Origin: a virus
DNA length: 64,000 bases
IMG/VR virus record: IMGVR_UViG_3300047321_000445
Span: 33,311 to 97,310 of that record
Direction: 5' to 3' (one strand)
A model generated the notes under the pieces. That model was not told the DNA's origin. It was given only the letters and a program-made list of their open reading frames with translations, and did no database searches. Positions 2,087 through 63,165 of this stretch are shown here, piece by piece. Position numbers and translations under genes: made by a program. Numbering within the stretch: position 1 is the stretch's first letter; every line of letters begins with the position of its first letter.

Positions 2087-2170
2087 CCGGCAGCTGGCTG
2101 GGGCCTGGCACTCGACTTGCCAGGCCCCAGCCCCGGGCTCGGCCCCGGTCTGCGCGGGAGTCTTGGCGTC

Positions 2171-2220
2171 CGACTTGTTTTCACGTCGGGACGTATGTAC
2201 TCTAGGTCTTGTCAACGGAA
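2171..2220 (+). promoter_or_regulatory. Motif A promoter, copy 2
   Basis: TTGTTT(2175)-17-TACTCT(2198). Confidence 0.8.
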
Positions 2221-2241
2221 CACCGACCCACGGAGGACCCC

Positions 2242-2583
2242 ATGATGATCACCCTCGACCTCCCCGAGGCCCTGAGCTACGAGATCGTCTACACGGCCGC
2301 GACGACCTGCCTGGCCAACCGTCGCTCGGGCATCTTCGAGTCCATCTCCATCCCTGCCGCCGAGAACCCCGCCGACGGCTGGAACCTGCGCCTCGTGGCC
2401 CTGAACAAGAAGGACGGCAGCACGCTCCTGGTGGACCTGCTGCGCCCCGTGGACGAGCGCTCCCCGTTCGCCGCCAGCGCCCGCGAGCGCCTGGCCGGAG
2501 GCGAGCGCCTGGCCATGCTGCTGGACCTGCTGCCCGAGCAGGCGCGCGGCGAGGTCATCCGCATCCCGCTCACCCGGGACTGA
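2242..2583 (+). CDS. Hypothetical protein
   Basis: GGAGG RBS, GC3-rich codons. Confidence 0.75.
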   Translation: MMITLDLPEALSYEIVYTAATTCLANRRSGIFESISIPAAENPADGWNLRLVALNKKDGSTLLVDLLRPVDERSPFAASARERLAGGERLAMLLDLLPEQARGEVIRIPLTRD

Positions 2584-2663
2584 CCCACCCCCCCCAGCTC
2601 CGCCCCCGGCTACTCGACTTGGCCGGGGGCGGCCGCCCACCCACCCACCGGAAGGACCCCAGC

Positions 2664-3245
2664 ATGACGACCGCAGCCGCAGGCCTCGGCGGGCTCATCG
2701 CCCGCGCAGCCCCGTTCACCTCGTACCGCACGTACACGTACAACACAGACCCGAACGTCCCGGGCATCCAGGGGCTTGCCACGGTCGCCGAAGCCACGGA
2801 GCTGGTGCGCGCCCACGTGGCTGCTGACAGCCGGCTGCGCAGCACGGCGGCGACCCCCTACGGCGCGGTCATCCTGCACCAGGGCGACACGCATATCCGG
2901 CTGGAGCCGGGCATCGACGCTCGCCCCCAGCGGCTGACCGGGCGCCAGGCCGACGACCTGCTGCTGATCGGCCGTGTTCAGGACCGGGCGAAGGTCGTGT
3001 GGGAGCCGGCCAAGGGGTGGGCGACGGTCCAGGGCGGGGTGTGGCGCATCCCCGCGGTTTCCACGGAGCGGCTGGTCAGGCGTGGATGGATCGCCACGGA
3101 GGGCGCCGACGGGGCCCTGGTGACCGTCTCCCTGGCTGGGGTGGTCGCCCTGCAGTGGCGCTACCTCAAGGGCGAGCGGGTGTCGTCGACTGCGCGCTGG
3201 GCGGAGGACGTGGCCGAGCATGTCGTGGACGTATTCTCCTCGTGA
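2664..3245 (+). CDS. Hypothetical protein (possible C-terminal winged helix)
   Basis: GGAAGGA RBS; ERLVRRGWI...VSLAG pattern. Confidence 0.7.
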   Translation: MTTAAAGLGGLIARAAPFTSYRTYTYNTDPNVPGIQGLATVAEATELVRAHVAADSRLRSTAATPYGAVILHQGDTHIRLEPGIDARPQRLTGRQADDLLLIGRVQDRAKVVWEPAKGWATVQGGVWRIPAVSTERLVRRGWIATEGADGALVTVSLAGVVALQWRYLKGERVSSTARWAEDVAEHVVDVFSS

Positions 3246-3247
3246 CC

Positions 3248-3300
3248 CGACTTGCTTTAACGTCGGGACGCCTGTACCTTAGGTCTTGTGAACGGGGCAC
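3248..3300 (+). promoter_or_regulatory. Motif A promoter, copy 3
   Basis: TTGCTT(3252)-17-TACCTT(3275). Confidence 0.8.
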
Positions 3301-3328
3301 ACCGCCCCGACCGACCGAGGAGGACCCC

Positions 3329-3847
3329 ATGGCCATCACCACCGCGACCGCCACCGGCCAGGCCGAAGCCGACCGCCTGCGCGCCTCGGCCCGCCAGCAC
3401 GAAGCGGACGTGATCGAGTCCCGCGACCGCTGCGACACCGACGGCTTCCTCTCCCAGTGGGCGTCCGGCCGCATGGCCGGCCTGGACTACCTCGCGGCCG
3501 AGATCGCCGAGGCGGGCGGCAAGTGGGACTTCGGCGGCCTCTTCGACCTGGAGGGCAACCTGGTCCCGGCCATCCGGCTCCAGAACCGCTACGACGGCTG
3601 GTCCTGGAAGCTCCTGGACGAGCGCGGCCGGTGCGCTGGCTGGTTCAACGAGTCCAAGGCCAAGACCGAGGAGCGGCGCGTGGCCGCCCACGCCAAGCAG
3701 GGCTTCTACGTCGGCCGCGTCCGCGTCCCGGCCAAGGCCGAGATGCAGGGCGGCAACTACTTCTCGGTGCGGGCGGTCCCGGTCCGCCTGGACGAGGGCT
3801 GGGACCCGGAGGCCGAGATCCTCGACAACGGCCAGCCCACGGCCTGA
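3329..3847 (+). CDS. Conserved actinophage-type hypothetical protein
   Basis: GAGGAGG RBS; RCDTDGFLSQWASG motif. Confidence 0.8.
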   Translation: MAITTATATGQAEADRLRASARQHEADVIESRDRCDTDGFLSQWASGRMAGLDYLAAEIAEAGGKWDFGGLFDLEGNLVPAIRLQNRYDGWSWKLLDERGRCAGWFNESKAKTEERRVAAHAKQGFYVGRVRVPAKAEMQGGNYFSVRAVPVRLDEGWDPEAEILDNGQPTA

Positions 3848-3929
3848 CACCCCGCCCCTTGGCTGCGCCCGGCCACTCGACTTGGCCGGGCGTGGCCGCC
3901 CCCGCCACAAGCCCCAGGAGTAGAGCCCC

Positions 3930-4244
3930 ATGAGCAACCCGCCCACCTCCATCGCCGACCAGCGGCAGGCCTGGAAGAGACTTCGCCCCGAGGCTCTCGC
4001 CCAGCTCGCCACGACCATGAACGCCGCCGAGATAGCCGACGCCTTCGGCGTGGCCCGCCCGGCCGTGGAGCAGCGTCTCGCGTACCACGGTCTCGTCGCC
4101 TGCGTCGGTGGCCCCACGCCCCGCCGCAAGCTCGTCCACAACCGGCTCATCCACTGCCCCGCCACCACGACGCTCGGCACCGTCTGCGGCGCGCCCCAGG
4201 AGCCTGACGGCACCTGCCGGTGGGCCCACCAGCACACGGCCTGA
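3930..4244 (+). CDS. Hypothetical protein, HTH-like N-terminus with Cys/His C-terminus
   Basis: AGGAG RBS; AAEIADAFGVARPAVEQRL. Confidence 0.65.
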   Translation: MSNPPTSIADQRQAWKRLRPEALAQLATTMNAAEIADAFGVARPAVEQRLAYHGLVACVGGPTPRRKLVHNRLIHCPATTTLGTVCGAPQEPDGTCRWAHQHTA

Positions 4245-4341
4245 CACCCCCCTCCCTGGTTGCGCCCGGCCACTCGACTTGGCCGGGCGCAGCCGCCCCG
4301 CTCATCCATCCCCGCTCCATCACCCTCCCGAGGAGAGATCC

Positions 4342-4632
4342 ATGGACACCACCGCTGCATCCACGGCCGGCGCCGAGGACACCCGCCGCGACTGGGCCAT
4401 CGTCGCCATCACCTCCCAGTCCATCCACTGCGCCGACAGGCAGGCCGCCGAGGAGGTGGCTGAAGACCGCCCGCACCTCACGGTCGTCTCGCGGCCGCTC
4501 GGGGGCGAGTGGGAGCCGCTGTCGCAGCCGGTCGTCCCGGTCGACCTGGGGCCGCTGAGCGACGAGCAGCTGGCGGCGCTCCAGTTCGAGGCCGCGCGGC
4601 TGTTGGCGCGCCGTCAGGGCCGCGCGCTGTAG
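4342..4632 (+). CDS. Hypothetical protein
   Basis: GAGGAG RBS. Confidence 0.7.
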   Translation: MDTTAASTAGAEDTRRDWAIVAITSQSIHCADRQAAEEVAEDRPHLTVVSRPLGGEWEPLSQPVVPVDLGPLSDEQLAALQFEAARLLARRQGRAL

Positions 4633-4728
4633 TTCCTGCTGAGTCCTGCTGCGCCCCGGTCGACATGGCCGGGGCGCAGTCGCGTTCGGGGGTGGGCTGT
4701 GCCCTGACCAGCGGGTTTTCACCCCTAG

Positions 4729-4778
4729 GCTTGCATGCACGTCGGGACACGTGTACTCTAGGTCTTGTGAACGGGGCA
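4729..4778 (+). promoter_or_regulatory. Motif A promoter, copy 4
   Basis: TTGCAT(4731)-17-TACTCT(4754). Confidence 0.8.
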
Positions 4779-4805
4779 ACGCCCCACCCGACCGAGGAGG
4801 ACCCC

Positions 4806-5066
4806 ATGGACACCATCGCCGCCGACAACCTGACCGGCACCTACTACCCCGCCGCCCCCGGCGCCCGCACCTGGCGCGAGGCCCGCCCCCTCTACATCGG
4901 CCGCGACCGCGTCTCGGCCGAGATCACGGCCGACCGCCAGGGCTACGTCTTCGTCGGCCTGCACATGGTCTTCGCCGGGGCCATCCCCGCCGACGTCCAG
5001 GGCAGCGCCGACGTGACCCGCTGGGCCCGCGAGGTGGCCCTGTCCACGCTCACGCTCGCCGCCTGA
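4806..5066 (+). CDS. Hypothetical protein
   Basis: GAGGAGG RBS. Confidence 0.75.
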   Translation: MDTIAADNLTGTYYPAAPGARTWREARPLYIGRDRVSAEITADRQGYVFVGLHMVFAGAIPADVQGSADVTRWAREVALSTLTLAA

Positions 5067-5138
5067 CCCACCATCCGCCCGCCGCGCCCCGGCCGCTCGA
5101 CTAGCCCGGGGCGCGGCACCCACCCCGAGAGGAACCCC

Positions 5139-5660
5139 ATGGCCATCGCAGACCTGAAGCTGCTGCCCGCCGTCGCCTTCGACCGCCCCACCCAGGACGG
5201 CATGAAGCCGCTCCCCGAGGGCTACGACCCGAGCCGGCTGACGATCGTCCGCGCCGACCAGGTGCGCACTGGGGACCTGGTCGTCGGCAGCGTCGACCAG
5301 CCCCTGAAGCGCGGCAGCCTGCTCCGCTGGGCGACGTACCTGGCGGCCGCGTACGTCGCGCAGCCGGGCCCGTACGAGGCCGACTGCGCGTCCTGCCGGG
5401 CCTGGACGTCCACGCCCGTGCCGGATGCCGAGTGGGTGTCCCTGGCCCCGCACGTCCCGCAGCTCGCGGACGAGCTGATCTCCATCGTCCCGGCGCCCGA
5501 GCCGGTGGAGGCCGCACCGCGGCCGTGCGTGCACACCTGCACCTGCGAGAACGGCCGCCTGCGGCAGACGACCCGCAGCTTCTACCCGGCCGCCATCTGC
5601 GGCGACTGTCACCGCCGTCCGTGCGGCGCCTGCCGTGACGCGGCCCGCTCGACCCACTGA
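5139..5660 (+). CDS. Hypothetical protein with Cys-rich C-terminus
   Basis: GAGAGGA RBS; several CxxC motifs. Confidence 0.7.
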   Translation: MAIADLKLLPAVAFDRPTQDGMKPLPEGYDPSRLTIVRADQVRTGDLVVGSVDQPLKRGSLLRWATYLAAAYVAQPGPYEADCASCRAWTSTPVPDAEWVSLAPHVPQLADELISIVPAPEPVEAAPRPCVHTCTCENGRLRQTTRSFYPAAICGDCHRRPCGACRDAARSTH

Positions 5661-5729
5661 TCCCACCTCACGGCTGCGCCCCGGCCACTCGACTTGGCCG
5701 GGGCGCAGCACCCACACCGAGAGGACACC

Positions 5730-6305
5730 ATGCCCACCTTCACCTTCCCCAGCGGCGCGACCGTCGAGGCGCCCGACGGACTGCCCCTGTGTGAGCGGCC
5801 CGAGACCGTCACGGAGGACGTCGGCCGTTCCATCCTGGTCGGCCTGACCCGCAGCGACCGACCGGTCTTCTCCACCTTCTCCTGTGCCGCTTACGCCGCC
5901 CTCGGTCGCCTGTTCACCATGCGGGGGGACGTTGCCTACGACCGCCGTCGGGCCGAGCGGCTGGAGGCCCGCGGCCGGACCTGGCAGGCGGGGAACGTGC
6001 GCCGCCATGCCGACGAGCGGGAGGCGCGCAACGAACGGCTCCTGGCGCGCATGGTGGCCGACCCGGCGCCGTGCACGTGCGTGATCCCTTACGTGCCCGC
6101 TGTCGAGCTGGCTGAAGAGGTCGGGGTTCTCAAGGCTGACGTCCTGGAGAAGATCCGCGATCGTGCCGACCGGATGAGGGCGCTCGGGGGGCGGGACGTG
6201 GAGCAGCTCGTTTTCCGCCTGGGCCCCGACGGTGAGGTGCTGGTGGCGCCGATTACGGCTCTGTCGCTGCGGATGCACTTCGCCCAGCCTGCGCACCTGC
6301 GCTGA
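5730..6305 (+). CDS. Hypothetical protein
   Basis: GAGAGGA RBS. Confidence 0.7.
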   Translation: MPTFTFPSGATVEAPDGLPLCERPETVTEDVGRSILVGLTRSDRPVFSTFSCAAYAALGRLFTMRGDVAYDRRRAERLEARGRTWQAGNVRRHADEREARNERLLARMVADPAPCTCVIPYVPAVELAEEVGVLKADVLEKIRDRADRMRALGGRDVEQLVFRLGPDGEVLVAPITALSLRMHFAQPAHLR

Positions 6306-6407
6306 CGCCTGACCCCGGACGCAATACGGCCGTCTGCTGCTTCTCGACTAAGCGGCAGACGGCCGGCCCCCACCGTAGCAAGACTGAACCCCCGGAAGGA
6401 ACCGTTC

Positions 6408-7052
6408 ATGAGCACGACTACGCCCGCCAGACCGGACGTGCCCGCTCTCGCCCACGAGACCGCGCGCATCCTCGGCACTGACTGGCACGCCCAGCCGGAC
6501 ACGGACTGGGTCAGCGCCTGGGCGCTGCACCACCGGGACGGGCGCCGCGTCCGCCTGTACGGCCCGGAGTACGGCAACGAGGGCCGGCTGTACATGGAGG
6601 GACTGCTGCCGAACGCGCCCGAGGACGAGCGGCCGGACCGGACCGGCCTGGACTCCGGGAACATCTCCGTCGCTGCGTCCTCCCCGGCCCGCCGTGTGGC
6701 CGGGGAGATCACCCGGCGCCTGCTGCCCAAGCTGACCCCGGCGTGCGAGGAGTACCGCCGTCGGCTGGAGGAGCTGCGTACGGCGGAGCGAGCCCGCGTG
6801 GCGGCTGCCCGCAGCCTGGCGGAACTGCCGGGCCTGTCGGAGCCGCGCCGGAACTACCACGACCGGAGGGTGACGGCGTATCACCTGGCCTGGGACGGGC
6901 CGAGGCGCGGCGAGTGGCACGGGGCGAAGCCGTCCGCGCGGATCGACGTGGACGCAGACCGGGAGACGGCTGAGCCGCACGTGTGCATGGAGCTGCGGGG
7001 GCTGTCGCCCGAGCAGGCCGAGCGGGTGCTGCGGGCGCTCATCGAGCCGTAG
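6408..7052 (+). CDS. Hypothetical protein
   Basis: GGAAGGA RBS. Confidence 0.7.
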   Translation: MSTTTPARPDVPALAHETARILGTDWHAQPDTDWVSAWALHHRDGRRVRLYGPEYGNEGRLYMEGLLPNAPEDERPDRTGLDSGNISVAASSPARRVAGEITRRLLPKLTPACEEYRRRLEELRTAERARVAAARSLAELPGLSEPRRNYHDRRVTAYHLAWDGPRRGEWHGAKPSARIDVDADRETAEPHVCMELRGLSPEQAERVLRALIEP

Positions 7053-7113
7053 GTCTGAGCGTCGTGGGTGTGCCCCGGCCGGGTTGGTCGGGGCACACCC
7101 ATATCTGCCTCAC

Positions 7114-7166
7114 GTCCCGACTTGCTTTCACGTCGGGACTCATGCATGCTTGGTCTTGCGAACGAC
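7114..7166 (+). promoter_or_regulatory. Motif A promoter, copy 5 (perfect GTCCCGAC-N10-GTCGGGAC inverted repeat)
   Basis: TTGCTT(7122)-17-CATGCT(7145); preceded by a hairpin at 7066-7100. Confidence 0.75.
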
Positions 7167-7191
7167 ACCAGCGACCAGGGATCGGAGATCC

Positions 7192-7896
7192 ATGCCTCAC
7201 GCACGCGCTCAGCTCATCGGCGGCCGCGACCGCCAGTGCGACGCCACCGCCGTCTACACGAAGCACAACAAGGTCCGCGCCTACGTCCTCCTGGACGGCA
7301 TCGGCGACACCACCGACGTCCACCTCTGGACCCTGCTCACCGCCCGCCGCCTGGCCTACCAGGCGGCAAACGACGCCGACGCCGAGGCCGGACTGCGCAC
7401 AGTCCACGCCCGGATCGCCGAGGAGCGCGCCCCGCTCGGCTTGGCCGCAGACTTCGAGCCGTCCGCGGTTGCCGTCGTCGCGGTCGCCATCCCCGGCGAG
7501 CTGCTCCAGGTCGCATGGTGCGGCGACGCCCGCGCCTACGTCCTGCCCGAAGGCGGCGAGTTGCGGCGGCTGACGACCGACCACAACAAGCGCCAGTGGC
7601 TGATCGACCAGGACCTCCCGTTCGGCCCGTACGACCGTAACCAGGTCCTCTCGTACCTCGGCGACACCGCCGAGGACGCGTCGCAGCGGATCGGGACGGC
7701 ACTCGGTCCCGCCTCGGGCCGCCTGCTGCTGGCCTCGGACGGCGCGTACGAGCCCCTGGAGGACTCGTGCATGGACCTGTCGGCCTACCTCGTGGGAAGC
7801 CCGCGTAAGGCCGCCAGGGACTTCACGCAGGCCGCCATCGACCGCGGCTCGGCCCGCCCGGACAACGCCACGGCCCTGGTCGTCGACTTCGGCTGA
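7192..7896 (+). CDS. PP2C/PPM-family Ser/Thr protein phosphatase
   Basis: RDRQCD, LLDGIG, WCGDARAY, LTTDH, LASDG and DNAT motifs. Confidence 0.9.
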   Translation: MPHARAQLIGGRDRQCDATAVYTKHNKVRAYVLLDGIGDTTDVHLWTLLTARRLAYQAANDADAEAGLRTVHARIAEERAPLGLAADFEPSAVAVVAVAIPGELLQVAWCGDARAYVLPEGGELRRLTTDHNKRQWLIDQDLPFGPYDRNQVLSYLGDTAEDASQRIGTALGPASGRLLLASDGAYEPLEDSCMDLSAYLVGSPRKAARDFTQAAIDRGSARPDNATALVVDFG

Positions 7897-7979
7897 TCCC
7901 CGCTCACCGTCCGCCCCGGCTACTCGACTTGGCCGGGGCGGGCCGCCTCTTCCCACCACACCCACTTGAACGGAGAACC

Positions 7980-8549
7980 ATGGACGCTCACGAGTCCCGC
8001 AACTTCCTGGCCGGCCTGGCCAAGAGACTCCCCGCCGAGGTCACCGTCGAAGACCGCGAAGGGCCGGTCACCCGCGAGGCACTGCTGCGGGTCATCCGTA
8101 ACGACCTGCTGCCGGTCCTGGTCCGCAACCCGCTGCACCGCCACCCGCGCAGGCAGCTCCCCGCCCTCTACGGCCCGGTCGCGGCCGGCCTGCGTCAGGC
8201 CCTGGTCGCCTACAGCTCGGGCCGTGGAGAGGACTTCCTGCCCCGGCTGGAGCAGGCTCTCGAGGCCGCGGCGGCCGCCCGCAAGGCGGACGACTACGAC
8301 CCCGCCACGAAGTACGTGACCGCGACGTCCTGGGCAGTCTCGTGCACCCTGGGCGCGCACATCGACGGCGCGATCCTCAACGTCCACGACCTGGACCACG
8401 AGGCGGTCAACGGCCACGGCGGCTGGGGCGTGGTCGTCTGGCACCCGGTCCACGACAAGCGGCAGTTCCCCAGCCAGGACGCAGCTCGCGCCTACGCCCT
8501 GCGGATGGGGCTGCTGCAGCGCTTCGTGCCGAGCCGCGTGCTGGTCTGA
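7980..8549 (+). CDS. Hypothetical protein
   Basis: GGAGA RBS. Confidence 0.7.
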   Translation: MDAHESRNFLAGLAKRLPAEVTVEDREGPVTREALLRVIRNDLLPVLVRNPLHRHPRRQLPALYGPVAAGLRQALVAYSSGRGEDFLPRLEQALEAAAAARKADDYDPATKYVTATSWAVSCTLGAHIDGAILNVHDLDHEAVNGHGGWGVVVWHPVHDKRQFPSQDAARAYALRMGLLQRFVPSRVLV

Positions 8550-8642
8550 CGGTCCCTCGCTGCGCCCCGGTCACTCGACTTGACCGGGGCGCAGCCGTGT
8601 TCGGGGACGGGCAGGCAGCACTCTCCATCTTTCTTGGGGAAC

Positions 8643-8692
8643 CGACTTGCTTTCACGTCGGGACACGTGCATACTAGGTCTTGCGAACGGGG
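8643..8692 (+). promoter_or_regulatory. Motif A promoter, copy 6
   Basis: TTGCTT(8647)-17-CATACT(8670). Confidence 0.8.
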
Positions 8693-8731
8693 AACGGAAA
8701 GTCCGGCCCCACCAACACCGAGGAGCACACC

Positions 8732-9409
8732 ATGGCTAAGACCCCCGCCTACACGATCACCACCACCGACGACACCAAGGTGGACGAGCGGACCGAGGGC
8801 AAGGCGGCCGACAAGCTGGCCCAGAAGCTCACCGCCGAGACCGGCCTGGTCCACCGGGTCTACACCCCGACCGGCAAGCTCCGCCTGGAGACCGAGGTCG
8901 TCGAGCCGGCCCCGGCCGATGAGGTCCCCTCGGTCGACATCAGCGAGGTCCCCGAGGCCGCGCCGGTCGAGGCCGAGGCCGAGGCGGAGGTCGAGGAGGT
9001 CGTGGAGGCCGAGGTCGAGGCCGAGGAGGTCGAGGAGGCCCCCGAGACGGCCCCGGTCGAGGTCCGCGAGATGAACATCGTGGTGCCCAGGGACTTCGTC
9101 TCCTACGCGACGCTGATGGACCTGCTCAAGAACGACGACGACGCGGTCCGCGAGGACGCCGCGTCCGAGTGGGCCTTCCGCCTGGAGGTCTACAAGCGGC
9201 GCACGAACGCCAAGGACGCCTCGAAGCGGATCGTCGGCCCGGCCATGGCGGCGGCGCTGGAGCGCGGCGAGACCACCGACGGGCGGACCATCGCCTCCCT
9301 GGCCAAGCGGGGCCTGGTGGAGCGCGGGGAGGGTCTGGCCTTCACGGTGAACGAGGCCGGGCGCGCGGCCCTGGCCGCTGCGGTCGCCGCGGTGACCGAC
9401 ACCGAGTGA
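8732..9409 (+). CDS. Hypothetical protein with Glu-rich acidic linker and winged-helix-like C-terminus
   Basis: GAGGAG RBS; EAEAEAEVEEVVEAEVEAEEVEE; GRTIASLAKRGLV. Confidence 0.75.
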   Translation: MAKTPAYTITTTDDTKVDERTEGKAADKLAQKLTAETGLVHRVYTPTGKLRLETEVVEPAPADEVPSVDISEVPEAAPVEAEAEAEVEEVVEAEVEAEEVEEAPETAPVEVREMNIVVPRDFVSYATLMDLLKNDDDAVREDAASEWAFRLEVYKRRTNAKDASKRIVGPAMAAALERGETTDGRTIASLAKRGLVERGEGLAFTVNEAGRAALAAAVAAVTDTE

Positions 9410-9469
9410 TCGTCCCTGAGGTTGCGCCCCGGCCACTCGACTTGGCCGGGGCGCGACTGCTTCCCTGGC

Positions 9470-9516
9470 CGACTTGCTTTCACGTCGGGACGTGTGTACT
9501 CTAAGTCTTGTGAGGG
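9470..9516 (+). promoter_or_regulatory. Motif A promoter, copy 7
   Basis: TTGCTT(9474)-17-TACTCT(9497). Confidence 0.8.
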
Positions 9517-9554
9517 ACCGGAACGACCGGCCCACCAACCACCAGGAGGACGCC

Positions 9555-9932
9555 ATGACCGCCACCGCCACCGAGACCCTGGCCCCCGGCACCGTCGTGC
9601 GCGCCCCCCTCTACCGCAACGGCCAGCCCGTCGGCCGACCCCGCCGCGGCATCGTCCTGCGCACCTTCGCCAGCGACGGCAACCCCAAGTCCGGCTACCT
9701 CGTGTGGTTCTACACGCTCGGGGCGGCCCACAAGGACGGCCAGGGCGACACCAGCACGGTCGGCCTGGTCTTCCCGCGCGAGGCCGAGCGCGTCGGCACC
9801 GTCGCCGACATGGGCGACCGGGTGCTGGCCAACGCCGGTAAGGGCCTGCGCGACTGGCCCACCGGCCGCCAGGCCTGGAACGAGATCTACCGCGTCTACG
9901 TCGCCCGGAAGCGCGCGGCCGCGCAGGCCTGA
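9555..9932 (+). CDS. Hypothetical protein
   Basis: AGGAGG RBS. Confidence 0.75.
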   Translation: MTATATETLAPGTVVRAPLYRNGQPVGRPRRGIVLRTFASDGNPKSGYLVWFYTLGAAHKDGQGDTSTVGLVFPREAERVGTVADMGDRVLANAGKGLRDWPTGRQAWNEIYRVYVARKRAAAQA

Positions 9933-10014
9933 CGGCCCCCCTCGCCGGGCCCCGGCCACTCGACTTGGCCGGGGCCCGGCACCCCACCACCCTCCGGAAG
10001 GAACTGAACCGACC

Positions 10015-11502: not shown

Positions 11503-11525
11503 CCCGACGACTCGACTGCGCCGGG
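11503..11525 (+). repeat. Degenerate CTCGACT-loop hairpin in the DUF6415 leader
   Basis: CCCGACG-A-CTCGACT-G-CGCCGGG, extended by CGCGT/ACGCG. Confidence 0.5.
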
Positions 11526-15340: not shown

Positions 15341-15374
15341 CGGCCCCGCACCCCATGCAGGGGGGTGCGGGGCC
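15341..15374 (+). terminator. Terminator, 34-bp direct repeat copy 1
   Basis: CGGCCCCGCACCCCATGCAGGGGGGTGCGGGGCC followed by TTT. Confidence 0.8.
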
Positions 15375-15777: not shown

Positions 15778-15811
15778 CGGCCCCGCACCCCATGCAGGGG
15801 GGTGCGGGGCC
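15778..15811. terminator. Terminator, 34-bp direct repeat copy 2
   Basis: Identical to 15341-15374. Confidence 0.8.
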
Positions 15812-15825
15812 GTTCCCATTGTCGG

Positions 15826-60925: not shown

Positions 60926-61345
60926 ATGCGCCTCACAGCCACCCCCCGAACCATCCCGATCCGACGACGCACCCCGGCTGTCCGGGGCGCGGTCGTTGAC
61001 ATCGCCTCGCGACGGACACGCTGTCCGGCCAGGGAACCGGACAGAGCGTCGGCAGGCGACGAAGCGAGTCTCGCGGTCGCGTACTGGGAGGGTGTTTTCG
61101 CTGCGGCCGGCCTGGACCTCCTCACACCGCAGCCACCTGCGATGGTCACGCGGGTGATTGCGTCGGAACTGGAGCGGCTGGTCGGGGGTCTGTCGTTCCT
61201 GCGCGAGGGCGGCGGGCCGAGGAACCTGCCGCCGAACCCGCAGGTGGGCATGGACGCGGTCAGCGCGGCGGAGTGCGCGGGACTGCTGCGGGAGCTGGCG
61301 GCTGCTGCTGAGCGGGCGACGGCCCGCAGCCAGGAAGAGGCGTAA
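60926..61345 (+). CDS. Hypothetical protein
   Basis: ORF ending at the hairpin 61353-61379; start uncertain. Confidence 0.5.
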   Translation: MRLTATPRTIPIRRRTPAVRGAVVDIASRRTRCPAREPDRASAGDEASLAVAYWEGVFAAAGLDLLTPQPPAMVTRVIASELERLVGGLSFLREGGGPRNLPPNPQVGMDAVSAAECAGLLRELAAAAERATARSQEEA

Positions 61346-61396
61346 GACGAAAGCCCCCGCCCTGGGGAGGGGCGGGGGCGCTCGCCGGCGCACGGG

Positions 61397-61585
61397 CTAC
61401 TCGCCCAGGAGTCGGCGCAGGAGTGCACGCATCTCGGGCGTCATCTGGTCCACCAGTGCGTGCGCTGCCTGATGCCCCGAGTACCGCTCCACGAAGTCGG
61501 CCTCCGTGGTCGCGGTGAACTTCTCGCCGCAGCGCCCACAACTGTGCTCGGCCAGGTCCCACGCCTGGCTGGCCTTCCTACTCAT
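61397..61585 (-). CDS. Small C2H2-like Zn-finger protein
   Basis: CGRC...HQAAH; AAGGAGG RBS; ATGA overlap. Confidence 0.7.
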   Translation of the reverse strand: MSRKASQAWDLAEHSCGRCGEKFTATTEADFVERYSGHQAAHALVDQMTPEMRALLRRLLGE

Positions 61586-62106
61586 GCGCGCGGAGCCTCC
61601 TTGCGGGGCCGGCCAATCTTCCTGCCCTGCTTCTCCCATGCGTCCTTGAAGGCGCGCACCTGGTAGGCGAAGTAGATGGGGCCTGCCTTGAGATGGGCTA
61701 CGGGCTGGGCGTGCTCCTGGAACAGGGCCGTCTGCGTGAGCTGCGCGGCGCGCTGCCGACTGGCGACGCCCAGCATCTCCTTGAGGTCCGCGATCCCAAC
61801 GAGGTCCGGGATGGGCAGGGGCTCGCGGTTGCGGCGGTCGAGCTCTTCCTCCGTGACGACCTCGATGCCTACGACCGCGGCGCGCCCGTAGACGGCCTGC
61901 ACGGCGCGGTCGCAGACGGCCAGGGCGGCGGGCACGGCGCGCTCGACGGTGGGCTCCTCCACGAAGACGCGCATGGAGAAGTTGCCGTTGGGGGCGGGGC
62001 TGACCGTGGCGTGGTAGCCGTCCAGGTGGTCGATGGCGGTGTCATAGGCGTCGTCGGGCACGCGGGCGCCGTACTCCACGTACACGCTCCATGCGGGGGG
62101 GTTCAT
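61582..62106 (-). CDS. HicB-like antitoxin / DNA-binding protein
   Basis: C-terminal DLVGIADLKEMLGVASRQRAAQL...PVAHLKAGP; downstream of hicA. Confidence 0.75.
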   Translation of the reverse strand: MNPPAWSVYVEYGARVPDDAYDTAIDHLDGYHATVSPAPNGNFSMRVFVEEPTVERAVPAALAVCDRAVQAVYGRAAVVGIEVVTEEELDRRNREPLPIPDLVGIADLKEMLGVASRQRAAQLTQTALFQEHAQPVAHLKAGPIYFAYQVRAFKDAWEKQGRKIGRPRKEAPRA

Positions 62107-62130
62107 CGGGGTCCTTCCGGTGAGGGCCGT

Positions 62131-62161
62131 GGGGGCCGCCCAAGTCGAGTGGGCGGCCCCC
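62131..62161 (-). repeat. CTCGACT-loop hairpin between the hicA and hicB-like genes
   Basis: Minus strand GGGGGCCGCCCA-CTCGACT-TGGGCGGCCCCC (12-bp perfect stem). Confidence 0.9.
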
Positions 62162-62171
62162 GTGGTGTGGA

Positions 62172-62372
62172 TCAGTGCGGCCACTTGAAGCCAGCTCGTC
62201 GGCAGTCGGCGAGGCAGTTCTTCATGGTGCGGTGGTCGCTTGGGGTGCTGGGGAGGGTGGTGACTCGCTGGCCCTTCTTGCGGACGACCAGGTGCGTGCT
62301 GTTCCTCCCCTTGGTCACTTCGAACCCTTGTGCTTCAAGTTCCTTGATGAGCGTCCTCAGGTCCTTGTTCAC
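62172..62372 (-). CDS. hicA: HicA-like toxin
   Basis: LIKELEAQGFEV..STH...TPSDHR..N...RRAG; 66 aa, basic. Confidence 0.8.
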   Translation of the reverse strand: MNKDLRTLIKELEAQGFEVTKGRNSTHLVVRKKGQRVTTLPSTPSDHRTMKNCLADCRRAGFKWPH

Positions 62373-62391
62373 CGTAGCCCCTTTCCCTGTC

Positions 62392-62433
62392 CGTTGACAA
62401 GGATATTACGTCGTAACCCTTGTCAACGTCAAC
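62392..62433 (-). promoter_or_regulatory. hicAB promoter/operator
   Basis: Minus strand TTGACG-18-TAATAT inside the inverted repeat CGTTGACAAGG...CCTTGTCAACG. Confidence 0.8.
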
Positions 62434-62536
62434 CCTTTTTATGGAGGGAACTGCGCTTGACCTGCAAGGACACCACGCGCGCGCGACTTCAGCCGAACAC
62501 CCTGTAGCGGCGCGTACGAGCCGCTACCCTTGCCCC

Positions 62537-62785
62537 ATGGCGAAGAAGCAGATCAACGTGCGTGTGGACGAAGACGTGTATGCCGGGATCGAGGAGCGCG
62601 CGGCGGCGGCCGGTATGGAGGTGGCCGACTACGCCCGCCAGGTGCTCGCCGACGAAGGCAACGACCTGCGGCACCGGTTCCTCGACGCGGCCCAGCACTA
62701 CGCGGAGGAGTGGGGCCCGCACTTTGCCGAGCGGTTCGGCCACCCCGCGCCCGCTCAGGATGAGGCGCGCGGGCGGGCAGCGTGA
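62537..62785 (+). CDS. Ribbon-helix-helix antitoxin
   Basis: KKQINVRVDEDVY...AAAAGMEVADYARQVL; TACCCT 6 nt upstream suggests a leaderless mRNA. Confidence 0.8.
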   Translation: MAKKQINVRVDEDVYAGIEERAAAAGMEVADYARQVLADEGNDLRHRFLDAAQHYAEEWGPHFAERFGHPAPAQDEARGRAA

Positions 62786-63165
62786 TCGTGCGCATTGACG
62801 GTGCGTGGCTGCTGGACGTCGCGCACCGGCACCTGCCAGGCGACCCGGACGTCACCGACTGGGGGACGATCGAGGCCGCCGTGGCCCGGCACGCCGCGCA
62901 GGTCATGGAACGGTACGTCTATCCCGAGCCACACCATCGGGCGGCGTCCCTCATGCACCAGCTCATCCGGTGCCCGGCGCTGGAGTACGGCAACGAGCTG
63001 TTCGGGGCCGTGACCGCCGCGGCGTACCTGACGGTGTCCGGGGTCGTGGTGACGGTCGACTTCAAGCAGGCGGCGGACCTGGCCGAGCGGATCGCCCGCG
63101 ACGGGCTGGACGTGCGCCAGGTCGCCGAGGAGATCAAGGGCTGGGCGGGGAGGGGACCGCGATGA
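62782..63165 (+). CDS. Fic/Doc-like toxin (degenerate motif)
   Basis: DWGTIEAAVARH...RAASLMHQL..PALEYGNELFG. Confidence 0.8.
   Translation: MIVRIDGAWLLDVAHRHLPGDPDVTDWGTIEAAVARHAAQVMERYVYPEPHHRAASLMHQLIRCPALEYGNELFGAVTAAAYLTVSGVVVTVDFKQAADLAERIARDGLDVRQVAEEIKGWAGRGPR

Follow-up and report, generated by a model that had tools for sequence, protein, structure and literature searches.

A CTCGACT-loop hairpin within a HicA-like toxin-antitoxin operon of a putative Streptomyces phage-plasmid: a probable internal attenuator sharing its loop with an element-wide hairpin family

The locus studied here raises two questions: what a GC-rich hairpin does between a hicA-like gene and the gene that follows it, and why the loop of this hairpin recurs in many other hairpins of the same genetic element. 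The sequence belongs to record IMGVR_UViG_3300047321_000445, a 97,310-bp entry filed as a virus, and the window (the whole stretch of DNA that was analyzed, 64,000 nucleotides) is the last 64 kb of that record. The record has a G+C content of 70% and an estimated completeness of 89%, and it encodes a terminase, a portal protein, a tape measure protein, and a lysin together with ParA-like and FtsK/TraB-like proteins and toxin-antitoxin modules. We interpret it as a Streptomyces phage-plasmid. When plasmids and phages were searched with the terminase, the DNA of the hairpin array described below, and a single hairpin, no close relative of the element came up, and one plasmid with three hairpin copies was returned; viral contigs searched with one protein of the array region yielded no match. 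A separate 14-bp perfect hairpin, GGGGCTCGGTGCCG-TTGTCCT-CGGCACCGAGCCCC, occupies record bases 11-45, outside the window and at the extreme left end, and could be connected with the genome ends.

A perfect 12-bp stem with a CTCGACT loop had been predicted in sense orientation between hicA and the antitoxin gene, and this hairpin was found at 62131-62161 on the minus strand. It has the sequence GGGGGCCGCCCA-CTCGACT-TGGGCGGCCCCC, with 12 Watson-Crick pairs, a 7-nt loop, and no U-tract; the bases directly 3' of it, ACGGCCCUCACC, do not qualify as even a short U-tract. The fold was calculated at -31 kcal/mol (z -4.8), and 0 of 200 shuffled sequences folded equally well. The hairpin lies in sense orientation between the HicA-like open reading frame and the partner gene, beginning 10 nt past the hicA-like stop codon and ending 24 nt before the partner ATG (62106), and the partner Shine-Dalgarno sequence GGAAGGA begins 13 nt after it. 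Homologs of both the HicA-like and the partner protein begin at the same residues as the window proteins, which supports both start codons; the hairpin is therefore intergenic and non-coding. Covariance model R1, the training set of which included this copy, scored it at 51.1 bits in the sense orientation versus 17.0 bits in antisense, and the array copies scored 45-61 bits. At gathering thresholds, no Rfam family matched anywhere in the window, and the matches in 61300-62600 were at chance level only. A degenerate copy had also been proposed at 11503-11525, but the sequence there is not a hairpin: its fold reached -16.6 kcal/mol with a z of -0.49, 62 of 200 shuffled sequences folded equally well, and the family model gave it 18.2 bits (E 0.22), the ordinary level for GC-rich sequence.

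The neighboring genes on the minus strand were then considered as a unit. The sole promoter-like site in 61300-62600, TTGACG-18-TAATAT at 62403-62432 (minus strand), lies upstream of the hicA-like gene. An inverted repeat read from the sequence, TTGACAAGG-N15-CCTTGTCAA at 62394-62426, covers the -10 element and the spacer of this promoter and is a likely candidate operator for autoregulation. The putative HicA-like toxin gene (62172-62372, minus strand) has a GTG start and encodes 66 amino acids, including an invariant His27. The partner gene (61582-62106, minus strand), a putative antitoxin and repressor gene, encodes 174 amino acids, and an ATGA stop/start overlap couples it to a DUF6237 gene (61397-61585, minus strand; PF19750, 42.6 bits). 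A canonical terminator hairpin with a U-rich tail at 61353-61379 (minus strand) closes the operon. The terminator scan of 61300-62600 detected this site only, with no terminator-like site at 62131-62161, and the promoter scan of the same region detected no promoter-like site between the hairpin and the partner gene. Because the sole promoter is upstream of hicA and the U-tailed terminator is at the end of the unit, the CTCGACT hairpin is internal to a three-gene unit, the predicted order of which is promoter/operator, hicA-like gene, hairpin, partner gene, DUF6237 gene, and canonical terminator. Divergent from the hicA-like gene, a second toxin-antitoxin-like pair occupies 62537-63165 (plus strand) and consists of a ribbon-helix-helix/NikA-like gene (PF21983) followed by a gene annotated as a Fic/Doc-family toxin in related plasmids.

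The hicA label is weak for the window protein taken alone and well supported for its clade. The protein scored 19.3 bits against the Pfam family PF07927, below the cut-off of 27, whereas all 7 clade members examined (66-74% identity) matched PF07927 at E <= 0.01, the best at 7.3e-7, and three close homologs carry a precomputed PF07927 annotation. Annotated HicA homologs occur on Prescottella equi plasmids and in actinophages. A sequence search of the PDB returned HicA chains only at E 0.29-0.82, and the profile search gave no match. The structural model (pLDDT 78) has an alpha-beta-beta-beta-alpha order (H3-14, E17-21, E28-32, E35-40, and H47-59), and the top three Foldseek matches in the PDB were the HicA toxins 6hpb_A, 4p78_C, and 5yrz_B; these matches are weak (E 0.1-0.24, TM 0.45-0.54, 23-30% identity). 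The protein is thus predicted to have the double-stranded-RNA-binding-type fold of HicA and is a putative toxin. His27 is invariant in the alignment of HicA-like proteins and present in all plasmid homologs, and is presumed, from the HicA family, to be the catalytic residue.

The partner protein had been called HicB-like, a label that neither its sequence nor its fold supports. It had no sequence match in Pfam, NCBIfam, or the PDB. Its model (pLDDT 91) shows an N-terminal domain of beta-alpha-beta-beta-alpha-beta order, which is ferredoxin-like, followed by a C-terminal region built of short helices plus a beta-hairpin, which may be read as helix-turn-helix-like; fold searches with this model listed only generic ferredoxin-like folds, and HicB was not among them, although a relationship to HicB may still exist. 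The position of the gene suggests an antitoxin role. Members of the partner family are paired with HicA-like genes in plasmids, in viral contigs, at 54 metagenome loci, and in 12 of 401 Streptomyces genomes, and the family may represent an undescribed antitoxin type for HicA.

A hairpin at this position is a regular feature of the closer relatives. Approximately 20 of the nearer HicA-partner loci carry a GC stem of 9-19 bp that begins 1-15 nt past the hicA stop codon, with more than 15 different loops. Among the plasmid loci with a partner gene, 8 of 9 have a GC stem of 9-16 bp starting approximately 6-13 nt past the hicA stop (L129 has none); the spacers at these hairpin loci measure 65-105 nt, and every loop is different. 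Three more hicA-partner loci with a GC hairpin in the spacer were identified in viral contigs, and 7 of the 12 Streptomyces genomes with a partner homolog have a spacer hairpin (stems of 10-19 bp). In metagenome contigs, the closest relatives have the hairpin, and in approximately 30 more distant ones the genes overlap or abut and the hairpin is missing. No U-run follows the spacer hairpin at any actinobacterial locus examined. Near relatives being spaced with a hairpin and distant ones being without it, the clade has a spaced-hairpin form and a compact form. The spaced form (65-105 nt) is represented by Streptomyces, Kitasatospora, Rhodococcus, and Prescottella members (L121-L134 and L214-L222), and the overlapping or abutting form by the distant metagenome loci L157-L206. 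On this comparison, the position and the stem of the hairpin are inherited features of this toxin-antitoxin clade.

The loop behaves differently in one part of the clade. A CTCGAC(T/C) loop occurs at the hicA-partner site in four loci, namely the window, two IMG/VR contigs (UViG_2786546129_000001 and UViG_3300049459_000181), and a 2-kb metagenome contig (Ga0164243_10148224). The two IMG/VR contigs are partial relatives of the element; they are syntenic with the late region of the window's element, and the array region is absent from them. In a tree of HicA plus partner, the four loop loci are monophyletic (support 97/92), with pairwise path lengths of 0.26-0.79. Their stems are unrelated (GGGGGCCGCCCA in the window and GCCGCCCCGGCCA, CCCCTGCC, and GGTGGCCCCGGT in the others), whereas all four loci have one and the same loop core. 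The sister subclade (L138, L214, L131, L216, and L217) exhibits the opposite pattern: the stem GGTCCGCCGGG/CCCGGCGGACC is kept, and the 6-nt loop varies (TGGCAC, AGGCAC, GTGCCA, and ATGCAG). The frozen loop core over turned-over stems, reversed in the sister subclade, indicates that the loop is under sequence constraint, a result that at the hicA site comes from one clade and is not separable from common ancestry of the element and its toxin-antitoxin pair. Three of the four loop loci sit in relatives of one element. An attempt to demonstrate that the loop follows the element and not the lineage of the toxin-antitoxin pair failed because the four loop loci are monophyletic. The Kitasatospora plasmid with the next-closest toxin-antitoxin pair has the loop CTCCCAA and only 6 proteins in common with the window's element, and a check of this plasmid for a loop family of its own found none.

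The same loop was then followed along the element. Within the window, 24 occurrences of the heptamer CTCGACT were counted, compared with an expected 10.0 +/- 3.1. The whole 97-kb record contains 18 CTCGACT-loop hairpins, each beginning 5-21 nt past a stop codon, and all of them are in sense orientation to the local genes across three strand switches. The original prediction had held that orientation favors a role at the RNA level, and this regularity in 18 of 18 record copies bears it out. Ten perfect copies form an array at 2096-9980 on the plus strand (45-61 bits). An imperfect array copy at 5076-5122 (plus strand, 37 bits) has the CTCGACT loop and a mispaired closing region, and an inverted variant member of the family lies at 1083-1129 on the minus strand (33 bits). 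Two further hairpins in the window, at 15342-15374 and 15778-15812, are alike in both stem and loop, with the sequence GGCCCCGCACCCC-ATGCAGG-GGGGTGCGGGGCC; lying on either side of a small gene, they constitute a separate small hairpin family.

We aligned 40 CTCGAC(T/C)-loop hairpins from five sources, comprising 18 from this record, 16 from S. cavernae, 3 from plasmid CP108999.1, and 3 from the two IMG/VR viral contigs. Five loop positions (C, T, C, G, and C) are invariant in all 40 copies. Changes on both sides were observed in 14 of 14 stem pairs, and 92% of the cells pair versus 63% in shuffled alignments, a percentage inflated by the requirement of a stem of at least 8 bp for entry. Loop position 7 differs by source: it is T in 18 of 18 record copies, the hicA copy included, but C in 13 of 16 S. 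cavernae copies and in all six copies from CP108999.1 and the two viral contigs. Because this T/C split also holds at orthologous sites, concerted change within an element is implied.

The distribution of the family is narrow. Exact and degenerate motif scans of viral contigs gave no match, and a motif scan of genome contigs gave mostly chance matches, with S. cavernae the sole true match among the matches listed. In a relaxed scan of 401 Streptomyces genomes, only S. cavernae stood out, with 11 matches against a background of approximately 2 per genome, a level at which large arrays stand out and small ones could be missed. One of the 401 genomes is unpublished; its count was at background, and it underlies none of the claims made here. 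The loop family is thus confined to one family of Streptomyces elements (1 of 401 genomes sampled). S. cavernae carries a region syntenic with the record that contains 16 family hairpins and encodes proteins 50-75% identical to those of the record. This region (G001:C9:281000-322000) corresponds to record positions 15.6-48.4 kb and has its own divergent hairpin arrays. Its cassette order differs, the homolog of the gene at window 4342-4632 being located after the homolog of 9492-9932, and the cassette at window 8681-9409 has a paralog on the opposite arm in both the record and the S. cavernae element. The linear Streptomyces plasmid CP108999.1 (155 kb) has only the DUF3560 and PP2C cassettes (147-150 kb) in common with the element, each with a CTCGACC hairpin; these cassettes adjoin a different repeated palindrome, GCGTGTAGCTACAC..., that resembles a promoter operator.

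A published system offers a precedent for such an arrangement. In the HicA^T^B operons of IncI2 plasmids, an internal GC hairpin immediately precedes the ribosome-binding site of hicB (Lin et al., Nucleic Acids Res 2025, PMC11878559). It results in approximately 10-fold more hicA than hicB mRNA and in less HicB protein and is needed for plasmid competition, and the HicA^O^B sister subfamily has overlapping genes without the internal hairpin (PMC11878559). The locus in the window resembles the IncI2 operons in having the toxin gene first, a plasmid-like mobile element as its carrier, a GC-rich spacer hairpin immediately upstream of the ribosome-binding site of the partner, and a separate canonical terminator at the operon end, and the actinobacterial clade likewise includes an overlapping-gene architecture without a hairpin. 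It differs in that the IncI2 hairpin is followed by UUU and the window hairpin by no U-tract, that its host is an actinobacterium, that its partner is not a recognizable HicB, that it is known from sequence alone, and that its loop is constrained and common to approximately 17 other hairpins of the element. Structured transcript ends without a U-tract form the majority class in Streptomyces; in S. clavuligerus, 353 of 535 structured transcript 3' ends lack one and read-through is intermediate (PMC8269248). The window hairpin resembles these I-shaped or HS-U-lack hairpins (PMC8269248) in its long GC stem, a loop within their range of 4-8 nt, the missing U-tract, and the position shortly past a stop codon, and intermediate read-through would be expected for it too. 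The generic U-less hairpins have no conserved loop, in contrast to the five invariant loop positions across 40 copies in the family described here.

On balance, we consider that the hairpin probably serves within the operon as a U-less attenuator or as a hairpin at transcript ends, setting the ratio of toxin to partner, and that its loop ties it to the element-wide set. A part of the transcripts would end at the hairpin base, or be trimmed back to it, leaving a stable hicA-only mRNA; the remaining transcripts would read through into the partner gene, and the toxin-to-partner ratio would thereby be set. The loop of the hicA copy, common to approximately 17 other end-of-gene hairpins, would be read by a putative factor, most likely encoded by the element, and because the loop is common to these hairpins, the toxin-antitoxin ratio would probably be tied to its reader. 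The anatomy of the hairpin, its family membership, its conserved position, the constraint on its loop, and its orientation are shown by the sequences, whereas termination or stabilization, read-through by part of the transcripts, and a reader of the loop are inferred. The missing U-tract counts against the attenuator reading, as such hairpins are at best weak terminators alone. The original prediction had offered two alternatives, and the one in which the signal uncouples toxin and antitoxin expression is better supported than processing by HicA: in the nearer relatives a GC hairpin is conserved at this position whatever its loop, no internal promoter was found, the U-tailed terminator is separate, and the IncI2 operons provide a precedent (PMC11878559).

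The other alternative, in which the HicA-like protein acts on the CTCGACT hairpin by binding or cleavage and processes the whole array, has a very slim chance of being correct, even though the protein has a predicted alpha-beta-beta-beta-alpha HicA fold with an invariant His and 4 of 4 members of the closest toxin-antitoxin subclade carry the loop beside hicA. The check put forward with the original prediction, co-occurrence of this HicA clade with the motif, fails in both directions. S. cavernae has a 16-copy array, yet its genome yielded no match to HicA, the partner, or PF07927 while the controls were positive, an absence that comes from a draft genome and is not proof; plasmid CP108999.1, with its three copies, likewise gave no PF07927 match. 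Conversely, three plasmids with the next-closest HicA homologs exhibited no motif excess over the control, and the 12 of 401 Streptomyces genomes with a partner homolog were all at background motif counts. In addition, double-stranded-RNA-binding folds recognize helix shape rather than loop sequence. HicA is therefore unlikely to be the enzyme for the array and very unlikely to be the reader of the loop; a local role of HicA or the partner at their own hairpin is possible because the four loop loci constitute one lineage. In a wider reading, which we regard as conceivable but doubtful, the loop would mark the members of an RNA regulon encoded by the element: an RNA-binding factor of this Streptomyces phage-plasmid family would read it at approximately 20 end-of-gene hairpins, the one in the toxin-antitoxin operon among them, and would switch termination, read-through, or mRNA stability jointly at all of these sites; if this is true, the addiction module would be wired to the same switch as the establishment and accessory genes of the element. 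A scan of 30 array-region proteins revealed no RNA-binding domain, and only a DUF3560 protein and a PP2C phosphatase, both cargo genes, are common to all three array-bearing elements.

That no reader candidate emerged from those 30 proteins would suit an ordinary U-less terminator or stabilizer with no dedicated reader, in which the shared loop reflects common descent, homogenization by short-tract recombination, or module copying. This explanation is unlikely in our view but a serious rival, and the evidence on it is divided. Many family stems share the core CCGGCCA/TGGCCGG, cassettes have been duplicated and reshuffled between the record and S. cavernae, and position 7 is T in 18 of 18 record copies, as homogenization would give. 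Yet the hicA copy and the array copies share only approximately 13 nt (CCA-loop-TGG), a very short conversion tract; the loop is fixed at the orthologous site in four diverged loci the stems of which have turned over, whereas the loops of the sister loci drift; and in two elements, array hairpins at orthologous sites have retained the loop although their stems underwent compensated changes. A role at the DNA level is quite improbable. In such a role, extruded hairpins or cruciforms would act as recombination, cassette-exchange, or replication signals, and hicA would be one more promoter-gene-hairpin cassette. The array does look modular, with relatives that differ in cassette order; CP108999.1 shares only two cassette genes and has the hairpins along with them; and perfect palindromes fold as DNA too. 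However, the orientation follows the local gene direction in 18 of 18 copies through three strand switches, the spacing from the stop codon is tight (5-21 nt), and the stems contain G-U pairs that are valid only on the sense RNA strand. Ordinary hairpins, moreover, occupy the orthologous hicA position in other clades, and no recombinase is associated with the copies.

Other known hairpin systems resemble the family in part. In phage lambda N/boxB and related loop-specific antitermination hairpins, the loop sequence rather than the stem is conserved and recognized, and as an analogy only, this system shares with the present family a phage-borne RNA hairpin with a conserved loop. It differs in that boxB belongs to a few leader nut sites and has a short stem, whereas the window family follows nearly every gene, and neither an N-like protein nor a boxA was found in this analysis. 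REP or intergenic 3' stabilizer hairpins and T7 RNase III sites are likewise repeated between genes in sense orientation, where they divide up polycistronic transcripts and make mRNA stability differ along them. Unlike the window family, which is confined to one Streptomyces element family, REP elements occur throughout the host and lack a fixed loop, and the T7 sites differ in having internal bulges.

Given the published HicA^T^B precedent for the mechanism, a hairpin that uncouples a toxin gene from its partner is a known kind of device; the more interesting part, still in need of an explanation, is the loop that is frozen across the element. The notion of HicA as an array-processing enzyme, attractive but unsupported, is removed by this work. 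Experimental proof that an internal hairpin sets a toxin-to-antitoxin ratio has so far come only from the IncI2 HicA^T^B operons of enterobacterial plasmids, and our findings suggest that this architecture is also widely distributed across an actinobacterial HicA-like clade, the partner protein of which is different and uncharacterized. U-less transcript-end hairpins are common in Streptomyces and poorly understood, and the frozen loop makes this locus, which comprises a single promoter, a single hairpin, and two genes, a compact case in which the sequence-specific reading of terminator-like hairpins can be tested.
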